In this document: piece by piece, positions 820 through 35,994 of the stretch | Layout of the letters: every line of letters begins with the position of its first letter | How positions within the stretch are numbered: position 1 is the stretch's first letter | Source of the DNA: Sphyrna mokarran | Lineage: Eukaryota | Direction of reading: 5' to 3' | Assembly: GCA_024679065.1 (NCBI GenBank) | Contig: JAGIQG010000040.1 | Coordinates: 10,354,001 to 10,418,000, forward strand | Length of the DNA: 64,000 nucleotides | Notes under the pieces: generated by a model | Told to the model about the DNA's origin: nothing | The model's database searches: none | What the model saw: the letters and a program-made list of their open reading frames with translations, nothing else | Made by a program: the position numbers and the translations under genes

Positions 820-3511
820 ACCTTCCACACCCCCAACAGAATGGACTCCGAGATTTACAATATGTTTGTTTGGCTCCATTATCAATGATGATGATATTAC
901 AGTTCAGCATTCCTTTATTTAAAAATCTAATTCCATTATAAGTATAGTGATGTTATTACCACGCACCTAACAAGAAGACGGATCTAAATATGACTAAACA
1001 ACATTTTCAGAAAAGTAAAAAGACTGTCAGTCAGTTTTGCAACATTTGCTGGTCTCTGTCACATTACAATAATAAAGCAACACTTAACAAATGAATTGTT
1101 ATCGATTTCTGTAACTAAATGCGGGGGATGAACAAAGTGATTCGATTTGCTATCACTGTACATTTTGGGTTTGGAGATGAGAAGAAACTCACACACAATA
1201 CAATGTTTCTCCTTATATTTGTCAAACTGCCCCAATCTCGAAGTCAGTTCTTTAAAAATAACACGACTCCCGCCCTCCTGTTAATTAAATAGTGAAATGA
1301 CAGAGAAACATGAAATTAAATCGGCATTTGACAGAGAAGTTAATGAACCGGAACGGGCACTGACATCATTAAAGTTCTCCTTCAGCATCTAAATCATTGC
1401 AGCTCACTCTATTGGCCAAGGGTTGTCTAACATTCGCTGGTATTGTGAACATAGGATATCAGAACTTTGTGGCACATTGCACTGTATCACAAGACTTAAT
1501 GTTTTATTTTCCATTGAATCAGGTTATGAGCTGATCATTTCTCCACTCATTGGCAACTATGAGAAGAACTCTTCAATAACAGAAATCCGATTAGACTGTA
1601 CAATAGAACACGGTGTAAATCAGGGATAAGAGACCCTTGTGTTTAAATGGGGTGCAGAACTTTCACAATATTACAGGAACCCCACTGTTCATGTCAGTTT
1701 CATGATGTTCTAATATCATTTCGATACATTTTTGCATCGCTCTGATCTCAATTGGCAGAATTGGGAGAATCAACATCTCTCACATTTCATGAAGTCGTTA
1801 ATAAACAGAATTTCATTACTGGAAGGGCAATTACTTGAAGGTTATACAAATGGAAAAAAAATCCCATCACTTTATTGTTTTGCGATACTATTTATTCACA
1901 TAATAAACAGGACATTGAATGGAAATATTTGATTAGAATGATTACGATTTAAAATGTGTCTTTCTTCTGGGAACGAAACATTAATTGTTCAAATAGCTGA
2001 ATCCCATTTTGTCTATTCAGGTTCACGCTAATCTGTCCCACACAGTATTTGGCAACAATCCAGACTGCTGTCAAATACTCAAAGTTATTGACAGGAAGCA
2101 TCTGGGGGTGTTTGTGCAGTAGATCAAAGACCTGTTTCCTCAGTACTGACCGCTTGGCTGCAAGCCAACCTAAAACCTTTCACGTTATCAATGAGATCTA
2201 TTTATAAACAAATCTACCCAGAAACAATGCTGGAGACACTTTAATTTTTAAAAGTTGTAAATCTAGATGATTTTTTCCATCTCTATAGAAAGGAAAGTAA
2301 TGCAGCTTCTCTAGCACCCTGTTAGCAACAAGAATGACTTTCCCAACACATGAGGATATTGTGATGGATGGATAGAAAGAATTAAAGGCAAACTGAGAGA
2401 TGTCTCAGAGAGACGATACATGAACATGTATGTTTGTATTTTCTTTCCATTTACCTTTTCATGGGCTGTTTGGTTGGAAAGACCAGCACTTTTTGCCTGT
2501 CCCAAATTCCCTTGAACTGACTGATTTTCTAGGCCACTACTGAATATATTAAAGAGTCAGTTATTTCGCTGTCCGCCTGGCATTTTTGTGTAGCGATGAC
2601 AGATTTCCTCCATTGGGAAATCAGAGAAGTTCCAATAGTCCCCATTAGTATCCGTTTCCGATTTATTAATTTAATTCAAATACCACCAGCTGTAATGCTC
2701 CGATTTAAATCCCTGTTCTTACACCATCGCCCTGGGCCTCTGGGTTATTGAATTAATTAAGTTAATATGAAGTCACAATCTACGCAAATAATAAATGTAT
2801 TACTGTGTTGGTGCAGGAATGAATGACATTTGAATGAATGACGTTTGGATGAATGACAATTTAATGCCTGAATATTTTGATTGAGGAATCAATGAATGGA
2901 TTCTTAGAAGCTGTAATAAATGGCATTGAAAAATGCTCTTCTACATTCCCATATTTGTGCTTGATTATTACATAAATTGAATCAGCTCTTTATTCCATTT
3001 CTGTCAGCCTAATAACTTCAATTCTTCCAGAGTGTCTGAGTGAAATCCATCCTGAGTTTATCGGGAATTAGCAAGCTGATGCTTATGGAGAGAAGAACGA
3101 GACATTCCTCCAGCTCAGATAGTTCATTTCTCTGCTGATTCTGAACTTTCATATCCAAGATAAAAAGACTGAAGATGACTAGTTTGAGGAGGGAGGATTG
3201 TAATATTTGAAATATGTGTGTTTTTTCTCACACACAGAAAATCACTCAACATGCCCTCACCCAAAATAGTGAAGGTAACAGGGTGAAAAAGAAACAAGGT
3301 AGCAACAGAAATATTGTAAGACTCACTGGACAATTACAGATGTTGCATTACTTCCCAGAACGTCTGATAGTACCTGTGAAGACAGAATACTGACAACGTC
3401 GGGAGTCTGGGTGACGCTTCAGCAGAGTATTCCTGATGCGGTGTTAAGCTCGTCATTGTTTCTGACAAGGTGTCAGTGAAGATGCATAACTTTTCTGTTT
3501 AAGTAGTTACT

Positions 3512-4360
3512 ACAAAGAACAAAACAAAGAACAAAGAACAACACAGCACGGGAAACAGGCCCTTCGGCCCAACGAGCCCGCGCCGCCATCCTAACATCTT
3601 AATGACATATAGAGACCAATATAGGGACAATTTGTTACCCAATCAGCCTAAGAGCACATTTTTGGGATGTGGGAGGAAACCGGAGCACCCGGAGAAAACC
3701 CACGCAACCACGGGGAGAACGCGCAAACTTCCGCAGACACAGGCCCAAATCCATGTGTCTGCACAGCAACAGCGATAGTCTCTGAGCTGTCATGTTGCCC
3801 ATCTGATGGTCCAGTTTACGCATACACTAACGACATGAAGCACTAGGCCACTCCTGAAGTAACATCCAGGAGCAGCCCTCGCACGACCTGCCGAATGCAT
3901 GCACCTTGTTGGTCAACAAGGTGGACCGAACAGCATGTGGAAACAATTAAAGTATTTAAACAGTCCTCCTATATCCCTCTATCTGCAGACCGCTCATGTG
4001 GCTGTCCAAGAGACCCTTAAACAACCCTAGCGTGCCTGCTCCCACCACCTTACTCGGTAGTGCATTCCACACACCCACTACCCTTTGTGTGAAAAAATGC
4101 CCTCTAATATTAGTCTTATACATAGCCCCCCTCACCCTAAGGCCGTGACCCCTCGTTCTATCCGATTCTAATGGTGGAAAAAGCTTACCATCATTTACTC
4201 TATCTATACCCCTCATAATCTTATATACCTCTAATAGATTCCCTCTCAGCCGACGTCTTTCAAGGGAAAACAACCCCAGTGCGTTCAACCTTTCCTCGTA
4301 AGACAGCCCTTCCATACCAGGCAGCATCCTGGTAAATCTCCTCTGCACTCTCTCCAGGGA
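3512..4360 (-). mobile_element. CR1 LINE, 5'-truncated (ORF2 C-terminus + long 3' UTR with embedded V-SINE)
   Basis: ORF 3956-4375 [14 protein letters not shown]...LFSLERRRLRG...FFTQRVVGVWNALP; tail of TTCTTTG-type repeats. Confidence 0.9.
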
Positions 4361-4520
4361 CTCCTCGAGCCACACACAAGTTACATCAATTACATACCGA
4401 TCCCAAATATCATAATCAACTTCTCCATTCTAACTAACCTTATCAACGTTTCAATCACTATCTATATCCGAAAGGAAAACTTCCAAATCTCTATCCACCC
4501 TCATCATTTCCAAATTTAAA

Positions 4521-7690: not shown

Positions 7691-7774
7691 AGATGCCCGC
7701 GTTTGACTGGGATAAACTCAGTAAGAGTTCCGGTAACATCAAGTTTAAATCCAACCGGTTTATTTGATAGTAAA

Positions 7775-7812
7775 CTTACAAGCTTTCGACCCTATGGTCT
7801 TCATCAGGTGAA
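7775..7812 (-). ncRNA. Minimal type I hammerhead ribozyme (Penelope-associated)
   Basis: ttcac-CTGATGA-a-GACC-atag-GGTC-GAAA-gctt-gtaag: conserved core boxes, stem II and palindromic AGCT stem III. Confidence 0.75.
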
Positions 7813-8569
7813 TGAGGGGGTCTGGTCTCCAACAGCACATGTAACAGCACAGACAGTTACAGATTACTGATTAGAATGCGAATCTTTACACCCAACCTGC
7901 TATTCAAGTCTTAAAGTGGCTAACAATATGAGTGGAAGGAGCACTGAGCACAGGTTAGAGAGATATGCATTGTCTCCAGACAGCACAGTAAGTGAGGTTT
8001 TTTGCTAACCCAGGCAAGTCATGGCGGATACAGATAGTGTGACATGAAGCCAAGATTCCTGTTAGGACCATCCTCATGTGTGCGCAACTTGGCTATCAGT
8101 CTCTGCTGGTATATTGGGGAGACTATGCAGACACTACGACAGCGGATGAATGAACACCTCTCGACAATCACCAGACAAATCTGTTCCCTTCCTTCTGTCG
8201 AACACTTCAGTGGTCACAGGCGTTCGACCTCTGACCTTCAGGTAAACGTTCTTCAAGGGGGCAGAGCTGTTGAGCAGAGATTGATAGCCAAGTTCCACAC
8301 ACATGAGGACGGTCTTAACAAGGATCTTGGTTTCATGTCACACTATCTGTAACCCCCATGACTTGCCTGGGTTAGCAAAAAAGCCTCACTTGCTGTGCTG
8401 ACTGGAGACAATACACATCTCTTTAACCTGTGCTCAGTGCTGCTTCCACTCACATTGTTAGCCACTTTAAGACTTGAATAGCGGGTTAAGTGTAAAGATT
8501 CACATTCTAATCAGTAATCTGTAAACAGTCTGTCCTGGTATGTGTGCTGTTGGAGACCAGAACACCTCA

Positions 8570-8607
8570 TTCACCTGACGAAGACAATAGGGTCGAAAGC
8601 TTGTAAG
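8570..8607 (+). ncRNA. Minimal type I hammerhead ribozyme (Penelope-associated)
   Basis: ttcac-CTGACGA-a-gacaatagggtc-GAAA-gctt-gtaag. Confidence 0.7.
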
Positions 8608-9204
8608 TATAATATCAAATAAATCAGTTGGATTTAAACCTGGTGTTGTCAGACCTCTTACTGAAGTAACATTAATGACATACAAGTGGCAGGTAATGAC
8701 CCTTCCAATAAGGGAGATTCCAACGATTTCCCCTTGACACTAAGTAGCATTATTATTGCAGAATCCTCACTGTCAACATCCTGGGCTTGAATATCTGAAC
8801 TGGAACAGGCATTTAAATCATGTGGCTACAAGAGCAGATCAGATGCCAGGAGTTCTGCTGTGAACAGCTCACTTTCTGAATTCCCAACTCCTATCCATCA
8901 TCTACAAGACCTACGTGAAGAATATGAACAAAGAACAAAGGACAATCCAGCACATGAACAGGCCTTTCTGTGCACCAAGTCTCTTGTAACATAAACGATT
9001 GAATATTCTCTACTTGGCCGACTTGTGCTACTCAGAAATCTCAACACTACCCTGGAAAAAGTAGCTGTCTCGAAGAATACCCTATTCACCAGCTTTCCAA
9101 AGCCTGTCACCACATTCTCAAAGGAAATTAGGATATAGCAAAAAAAGTTGACTTTGCCAGTGAAGCCAAAATCTCATGAAATAAGAAGGTTAGGGGAGGA
9201 AAAA

Positions 9205-19678: not shown

Positions 19679-19882
19679 NNNNNNNNNNNNNNNNNNNNNN
19701 NNNNNNNNNNNNNNNNNNNNNNNNNNNNNNNNNNNNNNNNNNNNNNNNNNNNNNNNNNNNNNNNNNNNNNNNNNNNNNNNNNNNNNNNNNNNNNNNNNNN
19801 NNNNNNNNNNNNNNNNNNNNNNNNNNNNNNNNNNNNNNNNNNNNNNNNNNNNNNNNNNNNNNNNNNNNNNNNNNNNNNNNNN
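19679..19882. other. Assembly gap (204 N)
   Basis: Run of N. Confidence 1.
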
Positions 19883-20720: not shown

Positions 20721-23700
20721 TTGCAGGAGGTCGTGACATTTTAAGAAACTAGGTGCCTAACACAAAATCTTGTTTGGCACCCACTAAATTTAACTTTGTT
20801 CCTTCTAATATATATTGATTTCTCATTTGGACACTTGACATTTTGTGCCATTATTTAAGCTCTTAATGAGTATTGCAAATAATTGAAGTCCCAGACAAAT
20901 TCCTGTGGGAAACCATTTACCCTGCATGATTCAGCAACATACGTGCACAATTACACTGCACCTGACATTTTGGCACCTTGCAGAAGGAGACATGATGTTA
21001 ATGGATGTTAGCTCTTGGTTCATTAACATCATAGATCATATCTGACAGCGATATTTTCACAGTAACTGTAATTACAAAGATTTGCCGGCAGATGGAAATG
21101 AAATCTTCATGGGTTACATTATATGAAGGATGAACTGACGCTATAAATACTGCACTGGATCCTGTATCTGTTCGTTTTGAATTGGCTCCATATGTATATT
21201 CTTAGATTGCACTCTGTCTCTGATTATAATACATTATATTATATGACCCCCTGTTTAAACTAATATTGCACCAGTATATGTTAATGTACGCATCACACAA
21301 TCACTCTGATCCGAGTATTTCCAGGAAGGATCTAACTTTGCAGTTCTGCCATATGCTGTCCTGAACGGTGGTGGACATTTAAGCAATTAATCACAGCAGG
21401 AGCGTCAAATAAAACTGTCTTTTTTAATAATGGAGGAGGGCAGCAAAAACAAGAGCGATAGAAGTGCTGAGAGGATTTTCCATCTCGACATCCTCCTGCG
21501 GTCCCGAGCATCACAGGTGCCAGTTTCCAAGCTGCTTAATTCATTACATGGAATAACATTGGAACAGGAGGAGGCCATTCAAGCCCTGGAGCCCGCTCAG
21601 CCATGCAAAATGATCGTGATTGATGATTGGCCTAACCCTCTGCTGAAGGTATTGGACGCTGCAAGGATTATTGGTCCTGACAATATTTCACCAGTAATAA
21701 TGATGATTTGTGCCCTGGAGCTAGCTGCGTCCCAGCCAATCTATTCAGGTATTGTTACATCACTATCACATGCCCAACAGTATGGAAAGTTGGTAGACGT
21801 GCCTTGTCGCAAAAGGCAAGGCAAATCCAGTCTGGCCGAGTGCCGCCAAATGTGATCTCACAGATCAAAATAATAGAAAGTATCGAGGATCATCCGATCA
21901 GAAATAATAGTAATAATCTACTCAATAAAGCTCTGTCTGGGTTCCACTCGGAACACTCGGTTTCAGAAATCACTTAAAATCGTTAGTCCAAATATAGTGG
22001 AAATAGCTGATTTAATGAGGTGAGGTGAGAGTGCCTATCCTTGGCATGACTTGACCGATGATGGCATCAAGAAGCCCGAGTAAGGCTGCAGCCAATGGGG
22101 ATCCGGGGGTAAACACTCTATTCACACCGAGTACAGAGTGAGATGGGTGTGGTCGTTGAAAACCAATCACCTCAGTCACATAGCATTGCTGAAGGAACTC
22201 TTCAGGATAATGTGTACGACCTAATCTTCACCCTTCGTTAGAAGGTCAGAAGTGAGATGTTCACTAATGATTGCAACTCCTCAGATACTGAAGCATTCCG
22301 TGTCCACATGCAGCAAGACTTAGAACACATTCAGGCTTTGGCTGAAGAGTGGAGAGTAACATTCTCGCCATACAAATGGAGACAATGACTTTTTTCAAGT
22401 AAGAGAGGTTCCAAACATCTCCCTTTGACACTAAACGACATGACGACCACTGAAATCCCACTATCATCATTCTGGGAATTACTGTTGATTAATAACTAAA
22501 CTGGGACAGCCATGTAAATAATATTGCGATAAGAACAGGCCAGAGGATTGGAATTTTGTACTGAGTGACTCATCTCCTCACTTCCCAAACCCTCTTTATC
22601 AAGTACAGGGCAAATGTCAGGAGTGTTATTTGAATATTCTCCACTTGTTTAATGTGTGACCCCGAAGCAACACCCAAATATCTCGATACCACCCAGCAGA
22701 AAGCAGGGAGCTCGATGAACGCCACACACGCCACTTTAAGCATGCACTTTCTGCGTTACAGATATACACCTCCTGTAACGTGAACTACAAACAATTCGTA
22801 TAGCAGAAACATAAACTTTCCATAGGAACTTCTAAAGACATTAGCTCTGACACTTAAAACGACAGGACAGCAGATGCACAAGAACACAATTAGCTTCAAG
22901 TGACCATAAAACCCACACTCCATCTTCACTGTATATTTCAGTGTTAAAAGGAAAAAACTTGTAACTCCCTTCCTGTCAGCACTGTACGTTTATTTGCTCT
23001 GTGGAATTCAATGGTTCGAGAAGAGAGCTCACCAGCACATTTTCAAAGGGAGAAACGAAGCAGCAACAAATGCTCCTTTACCAGCGATACCAAAATCTCA
23101 TAAAATAACTTTGAACATGTCATATCTCAGCTTACATTCAACTAGCCCCTATCTCTGTCTGTATTGCAATAGACCATGTCTCGATTACATTTCAACATGT
23201 CCCATCTCCTTTAGTTCTCGGCTCATTATCAGTTCTTCCTACATGAGGCCAAGGCCCTACTTTGACGATACTTTTGGAGTCATGACTGTGCTGAACTATG
23301 TTTCAGTTATTATGGGCGGCAAAGTGGCACAATCGTTATCACTGCAACCTGATAGCACCAGGGATCTGACTTCACTTCCCAGCTACGATGACTGTTTGTG
23401 TGTCATCTGCATGTTTTCCCTGTATCTGGATAGGTTTCATCCGGGTGCTCCGGTTTCCTCCCACAATCCGAAGGATGTGCTGTTTAGGTGTATTTTGGCC
23501 ATGCTAAATTTTCCTCTAAATTCTATCTGAACAGGCGACTAGGGGATTTTCACATGAATTTAATTGCAGTCTTAATGTAGGCCTACTTGTGACGCTAATA
23601 ATAAGTTTTAAAACTTTCATCTGCCCGTGTCTCAATTCCTATTGCATCAGAACATGTATCTGTGTGTATTAAACTGAAACAACATTCTTGTGCTACAAAT

Positions 23701-28810: not shown

Positions 28811-29049
28811 ATACATTTTCTCACATGTTCACGCTGAAGTGAATACAGTTATAGAGACATACAATGTTATACACATGATCACTTATACAGGGAAATACAC
28901 ATAACAATATTAATACACTGCATAAAGATGAACAGAGAGCAAAATATTTTCATGCAAACACGTGGACGCAAACTTTATCATGCTCATACAGAACACAGTA
29001 AATTTTTACAACACCAATTTTAAATCCAACCAAAATATTTGATAGTAAA

Positions 29050-29087
29050 TTCGCGAGCTTTCGACTCTATAGCCTTCGTCAGGCAAA
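29050..29087 (-). ncRNA. Minimal type I hammerhead ribozyme in a short Penelope terminal fragment (~29005-29130)
   Basis: TTTGC-CTGACGA-a-GGCT-atag-AGTC-GAAA-gCTC-GCGAA: stems I and II pair, with compensatory changes relative to the 7.8/8.6 kb copies. Confidence 0.8.
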
Positions 29088-29539
29088 TGCAGTGTTCTGG
29101 TCTGCAATAGCACTCATATCCACACAGACAGAACACCACAGCACACAATACTGCACATGGAAACACACGCATACACTGTCATATCTATCAACACGGATAT
29201 ACATGCACTAACATGTTAACAAATATGCACACAAACACACAGGAGAATAAACACACACAGAAAGGGAAGGAAACATTACTCGAGTGACACAAATTAACAT
29301 ATTGAAATAGGCAGGAACACGTTCACACATTAAGAATGGCATTAATAAATTTACATAAACTTCACACAATAATAATCATATATCCAAAATGTCTGAAGGA
29401 AAAAAATATACTCACAGAGGCAGACACACAACTTCACAAATGAACAAACACAGGCAAATGTACACGATCATTGTTTTTCAAAGACACATATTAACTCAGG
29501 ACCAAAGATTAATGTAGCTCACGAAGTGTTCATGTATAT

Positions 29540-33499: not shown

Positions 33500-35668
33500 C
33501 AGGCGGAGATCCTGAATGAATACTTTGCGTCGGTATTCACGAAGGAGAGGGGCTTGTTGACAGCTCCTGTCTCTGAGGGAGCTGTGGACCAGTTGAGGGA
33601 AATATCCATACCGAGGGAGGAAGTGTTAGAGCTTCTAGGTAGCATTAAAGCTGATAAATCTCCAGGGCTTGATGGCATTTATCCCAGACTGCTTAGAGAG
33701 GTGCGAGGTGAAATTGCTGGGCCTCTGGCGCAAATCTTTGTCTCTTCCTTGGGCACAGGTGAGGTCCCAGAGGACTGCAGAATAACTAATGTTGTACCGT
33801 TGTTTAAAAAGGGTGGTAGGGATAACCCTGGAAATTATAGGCTGGTGAGTTTGACGTCAGTGGTAGGGAAGCTGTTGGAGGGGATTCTTAGAGATAGGAT
33901 GTATAGGCACTTAGAGCATTGCAATCTGATTAGGGATACGCAGCATGGATTTGTTAAGGGGAGGTCGTGCCTTACAAATCTGGTAGAATTTTTTGAGGAG
34001 GTGACGAAAACGGTGGACGAAGGGTGAGCTGTTGATGTTGCCTATTGGATTTTAGTAAGGCATTTGACAAAGTCCCTCATGGGAGGTTAGTCGAGAAGGT
34101 CAAGGCTGATGGGATACAAGGACAGGTAGCTAGATGGATAAGCAACTGGCTTGGTAATAGGAGACAGAGAGTAATAGTGGAAGGGTGTTTCTCTAGCTGG
34201 AGGTCGGTCACTAGTGGTGTGTCGCAGGGCTTGGTACTGGGACCTCTTTTATTTGTAATATGTATAAATGACTTGGAAGAGGGAGTAAGTGGAGTGATCA
34301 GCAAGTTTGCAGACGATACAAAGATGGCTGGACTTGCAGATAGTGATGAGCATTGTCAGGCGATGCAGCAGGACATAGATAGGCGGGTAGCTTGGGCTAC
34401 TAGATGGCAGATGGAATTCAATCCTGATAAATGTGAGGTGATGCATTTCGGGAGAAAGAATGTAGGGGGGAGGTATATGATAAAGGGTAGACCTATTAAG
34501 AGTATAGAAACGCAGAGGGACCTGGGGTGCAGGTGAACAAGTCTCTGAAGGTGGCAGAGCAAGTGGAGAAAGTTGTGAAGAAAGCATACAGTATGCTAGC
34601 CTTTATAGGAAGGGGTATAGAGTACAAGAGCTGGCCTTTAATGTTGCAGTTGTATAAAATGCTGGTTAGACCTCATTTGGAATACTGTGTCCAGTTCTGG
34701 TCGCCTTACTACCGGAAGGACGTGGAGACTCTGAAAAGAGTGCAGAGGAGGTTTACCAGGATGCTGCCTGATATGGAAGGTCTGAGTTACGAGGAGAGAT
34801 TAGGCAAATTGGGACTGTTTTCCCTAGAAAGACGTAGACTTAGAGGAGATCTAATAGAGGTGTACAAGATTATGAAGGGGATAGATAGAGTAAACAGGGT
34901 TAAGCTTTTTCCTAGGATGGACTCAAATAGCACGAGGGGTCACGGGCTTAGGGTGAGGGGGGTAAGGTATAGTTTGGATGCTAGAGGGAGTTTTTTCACA
35001 CAGAGGGTGGTGGGGGTATGGAATGCGCTGCCAAGTAAAGTGGTGGAGGCAGGTACTCTGGAGTTATTTAAGAAACACTTAGATGGGCACATGAACAAAA
35101 TGGGAATGGAGGGGTATAGAAAACTGATTTAAAATAGGGATCATGAGCCTTGGGAGTCCCTGGAAGTGTGTAAATAGATGATGATATTGATGTATTTGTT
35201 TTTATCCTACAGGTGCTTTGGTCCACCTTGTTGTCTAACGAGGGGCATACACGCGATGGGTCGTGAGAGGGCTGCTCTTGGACCTTTTTCGAGAGTATCC
35301 TACTGCTTCACATCGTTAGTGTATGCTTGACCTGGACCATCTGATGGACAACATGACAACACAGTGACTATCGCTGTGCTGTGCAGATACATGGATTTGG
35401 TCCTGTGTCTGTGGGAGTTTGCGCATTCTCCCCGTGCTTGCGTGGGTTTTCTCCGGGTGCTCCGGTTTCCTCCCACATCCCAAAGATATGCTCTTAGGCT
35501 AATTGACAAAACAAATTCTCCCTAAATTGTCTCAAATTTGGTTTTTAATCCATAGATCTATAAACATGGACAGGGATCGCGTGTAGAAGTGGGAACATCG
35601 AGGTGGCGGCGCGGGGTCGTAGGACCGAAGGGCCTGTTTCCCATGCTGTTTTGTTCTTTGTTCTTTCT
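33500..35668 (+). mobile_element. CR1 LINE, 5'-truncated, RT with stop and frameshift, long 3' UTR with embedded V-SINE
   Basis: ORFs 33470-34027, 34045-34536 and 34527-35132 tile CR1 ORF2; tail ttctttg repeats. Confidence 0.93.
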
Positions 35669-35994
35669 TGTTTATTCATATCCTTTCTATAATAGGGTGA
35701 CCAGAATCATGCTGAATTCCTAGAACTCTTTGTCTCACCATTCATAGTTCACCTTCTTCTTGATAGAAAAGAGAAATTTCGGTAACTCCTTCATCCCTGA
35801 TCTTCTCTTGCCTTACACATACAGCCCTAGTAGACAGGGATTCAGCCTTATCAGGTCTTGACCTTTTCCCGTCTTATTCATTTCTTAGTTTATGCAGAGT
35901 CAGCTTTCGTTATTTTGAACCAAATAGTTGACCAATTTTCCCATCATGCCATTACTTCATTCATACAACTTCACAACAGGACTAAGTCAGTTCA

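Follow-up and report, generated by a model that had tools for sequence, protein, structure and literature searches.

A predicted three-way-junction RNA joined to a V-SINE domain in the 3' untranslated region of CR1-like LINEs from Sphyrna mokarran

The window, a 64,000-nucleotide stretch of the Sphyrna mokarran genome, contains four LINE copies with a predicted three-way-junction RNA downstream of ORF2. The copies represent only two CR1 subfamilies, or lineages: subfamily A is copy 1, and subfamily B is copies 2–4. The features are listed below.

33502–35132, plus strand: copy 2 CR1 ORF2 (reverse transcriptase, C-terminus), 5'-truncated and frameshifted, stop TAA at 35130–35132
35133–35219, plus strand: variable linker, 28 nt in A and 87 nt in B
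35195–35213, plus strand: linker end, pyrimidine tract and CAG/G, also able to form a small hairpin
35220–35338, plus strand: predicted three-way junction of copy 2 (subfamily B), from folding and a covariance model; P1 closing stem 35220–25/35333–38, P2 hairpin 35226–43, P3 long irregular arm 35244–35327 with a G-C flanked U-U/C-U mismatch pair at 35260–63/35306–09
35339–35413, plus strand: remodelled tRNA-type SINE head with decayed A and B boxes
35414–35492, plus strand: V domain of V-SINEs within the LINE 3' UTR
35496–35603, plus strand: variable spacer, the internal control for low constraint
35604–35670, plus strand: terminal CR1 stem-loop and short-repeat tail
3956–4367, minus strand: copy 1 ORF2 3' end (subfamily A), stop TAA at 3956–3958
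3808–3927, minus strand: predicted three-way junction of copy 1 (subfamily A), from folding and consensus pairing
3654–3807, minus strand: copy 1 remodelled SINE head and V domain
46507–46629, minus strand: predicted three-way junction of copy 3 (subfamily B), in the element at 46424–46991
52236–52354, plus strand: predicted three-way junction of copy 4 (subfamily B), in the element at 51315–52684
23315–23614, plus strand: free V-SINE copy without the junction, for comparison; another lies near 45000–45308

The ORF2 of copy 2 matched Pfam RVT_1 at E values of 1.7e-6 and 3.6e-21. Among named proteins, those closest to ORF2 are from ray and shark (55–63% identity), as suits an elasmobranch host, and bird proteins match at 40–55%. 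The RVT_1 domain and the closeness to CR1 proteins place the ORF2 putatively in the CR1 clade, an assignment by protein similarity rather than by a tree with reference CR1s. The 3' end is of the CR1 type, with a terminal stem-loop and a short-repeat tail and no poly(A). All four copies are 5'-truncated, and the ORF2 end of copy 1 is identical to that of copy 2 at 99 of 134 residues. Further proteins align with the ORF2 end at 72–93%, which suggests more subfamilies of the A/B clade, and the protein matches include at least four of its ORF2 subfamilies. Four-fold sites differ between A and B at 20 of 42 positions (48%) compared with 48 of 268 at codon positions 1 and 2, and ORF2 was therefore kept under selection in both lineages.

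The coordinates and strands of the four junctions given in the earlier note were confirmed, and each junction lies 3' of a CR1 ORF2 end. The junction with its SINE segment is joined to ORF2 in all four copies, and ORF2, structure, and tail are uninterrupted in copies 1, 2, and 4. Copies 2–4 are 89–94% alike. The copy 3 element (46424–46991) is without most of the V domain and without its own tail; it ends at the V-domain start and is followed by a decayed piece (46300–46424, minus strand), which we take to resemble another SINE/LINE tail. The ORF2 tree groups the A and B ends in a single clade (99/97), separate from the five short-UTR CR1 copies included, and the junction is inherited together with this monophyletic clade. 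Six CR1 3' ends in the window have a short UTR of about 100 nt, at 4517 (minus), 31343 (minus), 42260 (plus), 46990 (minus), 48444 (minus), and 51110 (plus). They have the terminal stem-loop and lack the module, and two of them lie directly upstream of copies 1 and 3. Because these six copies spread without it, the module is not essential to CR1 and is probably accessory.

The four copies are predicted to fold alike, as described before: a stem closes the structure around a short hairpin and a long, irregular arm. The folding energies of copies 1–4 are −59.7, −52.4, −44.4, and −42.1 kcal/mol. The sense-strand z-scores are −6.46, −5.51, −3.75, and −2.21 against 200 shuffles, and the antisense values are −1.2, −1.8, −3.4, and −0.85. 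Sense specificity is clear in three of the four copies, with copy 3 the exception, and this bias is expected of an RNA fold with the 8–9 G-U pairs found in each copy. Strand bias and G-U content led us to reject a MITE or a DNA palindrome. A 120-nt segment in the ORF2 end of copy 1 (3948–4067, minus strand) also folds strongly (z −4.8, 25 shuffles), and this fold is not common to copies 2–4. Because this unrelated segment reached such a score, a single-sequence z-score alone is no proof.

A covariance model built from the four copies recovered the same four at 123–132 bits, as it must by construction. The next match scored 16 bits, and the model found no fifth junction copy in the window. The earlier note had proposed an Rfam search, and it held the junction to be separate from the terminal CR1 stem-loop, as is borne out here. 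Rfam at the gathering score returned 10 tRNAs over the window and nothing at the junction, and a search to E 10 with copies 1 and 2 gave either nothing or chance miRNA matches (E 1.3–7.3). The junction lies 285–330 nt upstream of the extreme 3' end, and the element has a terminal stem-loop besides. Other structural readings were rejected. For a C/D box, the C-like box is present in copy 2 only and the D-like box varies; a kissing pair between the P2 loop and the internal loop fits copy 1 only; and a longer stem at the base suits copy 1 and the centroid fold of copy 2 but does not suit copies 3 and 4. A SECIS element does not fit an ORF2 stop that is UAA rather than UGA or a copy 1 junction without RUGA.

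The 10 tRNA genes are clustered at 47981–60976 with inverted segmental duplicates (47569–48444 versus 59557–60443, and 48914–49766 versus 58711–59550). The window also contains an inverted pair of 390-nt repeats (7718–8107 and 8273–8664), 89% identical and 165 nt apart, with a relative at 29008–29131. An assembly gap of 204 N occupies 19679–19882.

The consensus structure has 46 pairs, and 96.2% of its 184 cells are paired compared with 35–48% when the partners are slid. Copy 1 and the B majority differ at 13 of the 46 pairs. The earlier note had called all differences compensatory or G-U. This holds for 10 of the 13, which are canonical in both subfamilies, but not for the other three. Two have no pairing in copy 1 under the shared register but pair in its own fold through a bulge shift, and one is mismatched in B. 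The mismatched pair, 35247–35324, is A-C in copies 3 and 4, and position 35324 is C in 60% of genome reads. Three pairs changed on both sides, one of them by a U-G/G-U swap. The two-sided change at 35278–35292 likely passed through U-G because T occurs at 35278 in A-type reads.

When the same 16 substitutions are placed at random, 7–9 pairs are broken on average. Pair preservation has a p value of 0.0009–0.009 under this null when starting from B, and was reached in none of 50,000 trials starting from copy 1. Of 600 B sequences mutated at random, none reached a fold as good as that of copy 1. The long arm P3 differs between A and B at 17 of 84 sites (20%), and its helix is kept. Because the four copies are two lineages, a single contrast, A versus B, carries the covariation. 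The evidence is strong but short of R-scape grade since the structure was derived from the same sequences and the lineage contrast is single. The pairs kept above the random-substitution null, the arm helix kept at this divergence, and the mostly sense-specific folding uphold the earlier proposal of selection on the RNA fold and indicate, from sequence comparison, that the junction fold is likely under selection.

Private changes at paired columns in copies 2–4 break a pair in 4 of 10 cases, from which we infer that selection acts on master elements. Such decay after insertion would also be seen if the fold were a functionless relic of a captured RNA or of an old inverted repeat, a reading we consider improbable. 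The pair-preserving changes postdate the A/B split and arose within the LINE, folding is mostly sense-specific, free V-SINEs lack the fold, and decay of dead copies is expected if only master elements are selected.

Conserved and variable segments alternate along the element. Copy 1 is distinct from all B copies at 86 of 405 sites in the ORF2 end (21%), 10 of 28 in the linker (36%), and 21 of 61 in the spacer (34%), which also has a 46-nt indel. The corresponding counts are 2 of 24 for P1 and P2 (8%), 1 of 11 for the junction strand, 3 of 71 for the SINE head (4%), 5 of 86 for the V domain (35410–35495; 6%), and 1 of 62 for the tail (2%). This alternation of frozen and variable segments favors selection over a single recent exchange. 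The head, V domain, and tail might instead have become near-identical through recombination or gene conversion, either among subfamilies or with free V-SINEs, which would leave only the junction as selected sequence. The differences of 2–6% in these three segments are about what decay of a single copy gives, and PMC5804259 and PMC4758252 propose that conserved SINE domains are hot spots of exchange. However, two separate tracts are needed because the spacer between the V domain and the tail is so divergent and carries the indel. The remodelled head is unlike both free SINE heads in the window, and invariant and variable sites alternate within the junction itself. Recombination through two conversion tracts is an unlikely explanation, and selection on the segments remains the preferred one.

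The SINE head lies directly 3' of the junction and is followed by the V domain. The earlier note had missed that the junction belongs to a conserved module of about 270 nt, with the junction as its 5' domain and a captured V-SINE, consisting of the remodelled head and the V domain, as the remainder. The V domain aligns to the free V-SINE copies in the window, and 69 of its 79 bases, counted by eye, equal the frog V-SINE Racla consensus in the supplement of PMC5804259. In copies 1, 2, and 4, the best A box has 2–3 mismatches and the best B box 4–5 against the consensus sequences; the two old free V-SINEs are also decayed, with 1 and 3 mismatches in the A box and 4 and 2 in the B box. The junction was absent from the free V-SINEs of the window by both the covariance model and alignment. 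In the consensus fold, the 5' end of the head base-pairs with the V domain and the V hairpin is retained, but these segments vary too little to reveal covariation. No copy has AATAAA or ATTAAA in its sense-strand UTR.

Of 23 listed runs, 20 contain all or part of the stretch. Four were compared, with a single run per organism (A, E, F, and H), and one of the four is a presumed RNA run, used as contigs. The segment was covered in all four organisms. In the raw genome reads of organism A, the junction has a depth of about 29,500 per 1,919 million letters, or about 15 copies per Mb, which would be tens of thousands of copies if the genome is multi-gigabase. Among the rows listed, in unphased tables, most variants at paired sites either preserve pairing or fall at CpG. 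In the most distant organism, the depth at 80% likeness is 2,400–4,000 over P1/P2 and the start of the arm, 130–150 over the distal arm, and 0 over the linker. The loose ends reveal further subfamilies. Those of organism F have U at 35259, one organism H variant alters 35265–35268 and would turn the internal loop into a full helix (with the partner deduced from another contig), and another organism H variant alters 35302 and 35310. The earlier statement that the internal-loop bases are largely conserved was thus too strong. P1 (with one G-U), P2, and the G-C flanked U-U/C-U mismatch are constant among the rows listed.

Pattern scans for the junction gave 0 matches in the metagenome, viral, and prokaryote collections. 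Scans based on ORF2 kept 80 of 239 metagenome loci (all 33–51% identical) and one genome locus, and returned no viral loci. The covariance model had 0 matches in these 81 loci, and blastn gave one 20-nt chance match. One locus (L081, 1501–1848), from a contig assigned to a bacterial metagenome-assembled genome, is a CR1-like ORF2 piece with 38% identity and probably reflects contamination by animal DNA.

The pyrimidine tract and CAG/G at the linker end, 7 nt before P1, resemble a splice acceptor, and the module might then be a spliced exon that yields an ORF-less RNA or captures transcripts of the host. The motif occurs in copies 2–4 and in one A-type contig from organism F, although the linkers are 54–64% identical. 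Against this reading, copy 1 has CAT at that place and the same bases can form a small hairpin. We found no GT..AG joint within the stretch and no class of loose ends at 35213 among the rows listed. A spliced exon has a low probability.

That the structure is a new class of self-cleaving ribozyme, which would liberate a short RNA bearing the tail, is a still slimmer prospect. The size, the junction shape, and the near-invariant junction bases would suit a ribozyme, ribozymes are known in non-LTR elements (as reported in PMC5786205 and PMC8501958), and the GCUUCA and GGUCG strands loosely echo a twister-sister-like loop. However, the loop is 4x4 rather than 6x5, has no U-A pair, and carries U-C at the position of the C-A cleavage site described in PMC11620745. 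A hammerhead core is absent, in agreement with the earlier note: CUGANGA does not occur on either strand of the four UTRs, and Rfam gave no match. Hairpin ribozyme loop B strands are absent from the sense strand and have no Rfam match, twister-sister-like motifs are absent from the sense strand of the UTRs, and the sequence-model search of Rfam to E 10 gave no HDV-like or twister match. Cleavage would separate ORF2 from the tail that is needed in cis, and no dominant start position appears among the loose ends listed. The absence of hammerhead, hairpin, and twister-sister-like cores from the sense strand, the ORF2-to-tail continuity, and the lack of a single start site among those ends leave the ribozyme option that the earlier note had entertained without support.

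The lowest probability falls to the long arm as a small-RNA precursor or double-stranded editing substrate that serves silencing or escape from it. The 33 consensus pairs of the arm form an imperfect helix, close to a pri-miRNA in length. However, the base of the arm is closed by the junction rather than by single strands, conservation is in the junction and not in the arm, and the miRNA matches are at chance level only.

With slightly better than even confidence, we read the module as an accessory cis-acting protein-docking site that would raise the element's own retrotransposition. LINE ORF2p binds 3' stem-loops, as described in PMC4176376, and binding by the R2 protein depends on two stem-loops according to PMC11194090. 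By docking a protein on the element's own RNA, the module might improve RNP loading, export, or the stability of a transcript that lacks a poly(A) signal. The candidate partner is ORF2p or an RNA-binding protein of the host. Contact points would be the U-U/C-U mismatch and the P1/P2 junction, which is near-invariant, and the long arm could be a scaffold that needs only to be a helix. Counting against protein docking are that only two full-length lineages could be aligned, that no more than three pairs changed on both sides, that the main B subfamily has the A-C mismatch in its arm, and that the short-UTR CR1 copies spread without the module.

At somewhat less than even confidence, an autonomous vertebrate LINE lineage may have acquired a V-SINE and combined it with a new three-way-junction RNA into a domesticated retrotransposition enhancer. 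If this is true, the V domain, which is conserved across animals, would work in cis for the mobile RNA itself, and the LINE would be its natural assay system. The carrier encodes its own enzyme, so a standard retrotransposition reporter could test the junction and V domain directly. CR1 3' UTRs could then hold regulatory RNA domains beyond the terminal stem-loop. As of 2016, PMC5804259 states that conserved SINE domains such as V had not been found in LINEs. No description of the junction or of a LINE V domain was found in the literature searched. The CR1 family with the junction may already be catalogued as sequence, for example in Repbase or Dfam, and the original V-SINE and HE1 papers and the supplements of the 2026 CR1 survey may bear on priority. 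Cis-acting structures in LINE UTRs are already known; the part that appears new is the fold, its position, and the captured V domain.

The LINE tail stem-loops of ZfL2-1/ZfL2-2 and UnaL2 are likewise structured, located in the 3' UTR, and conserved within lineages (PMC4176376, PMC1636434). They are at the extreme 3' end, whereas the 120-nt junction lies well upstream and alongside a separate terminal stem-loop. The two-stem-loop site of the R2 3' UTR (PMC11194090) is also multi-helix, and a role for the element's own protein is suggested here by analogy to it; that site belongs to another clade and has no sequence link to the junction. Twister-sister-like (lantern) ribozymes share an internal loop between two stems and a few matching bases, but their 6x5 loop GCUCAA/GCUAG, U-A pair, and C-A cleavage site, as given in PMC11620745, are not matched. 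V-SINEs share the V domain, the remnant of a tRNA-type head, and the V hairpin in the consensus fold. They are free-standing, non-autonomous, and without the junction, whereas the V domain here is inside an ORF2-bearing LINE with decayed Pol III boxes. The tail and SINE of the junction-bearing CR1 presumably resemble HER1 and HE1. HE1 of sharks and rays is paired with the partner LINE HER1 in PMC3747384. MER6, a DNA transposon with a headless V-SINE (PMC6887750), is another mobile element that captured a V domain. MER6 is non-autonomous and has no RNA step, whereas the carrier described here is a retrotransposon with a V domain that is near-frozen between lineages.
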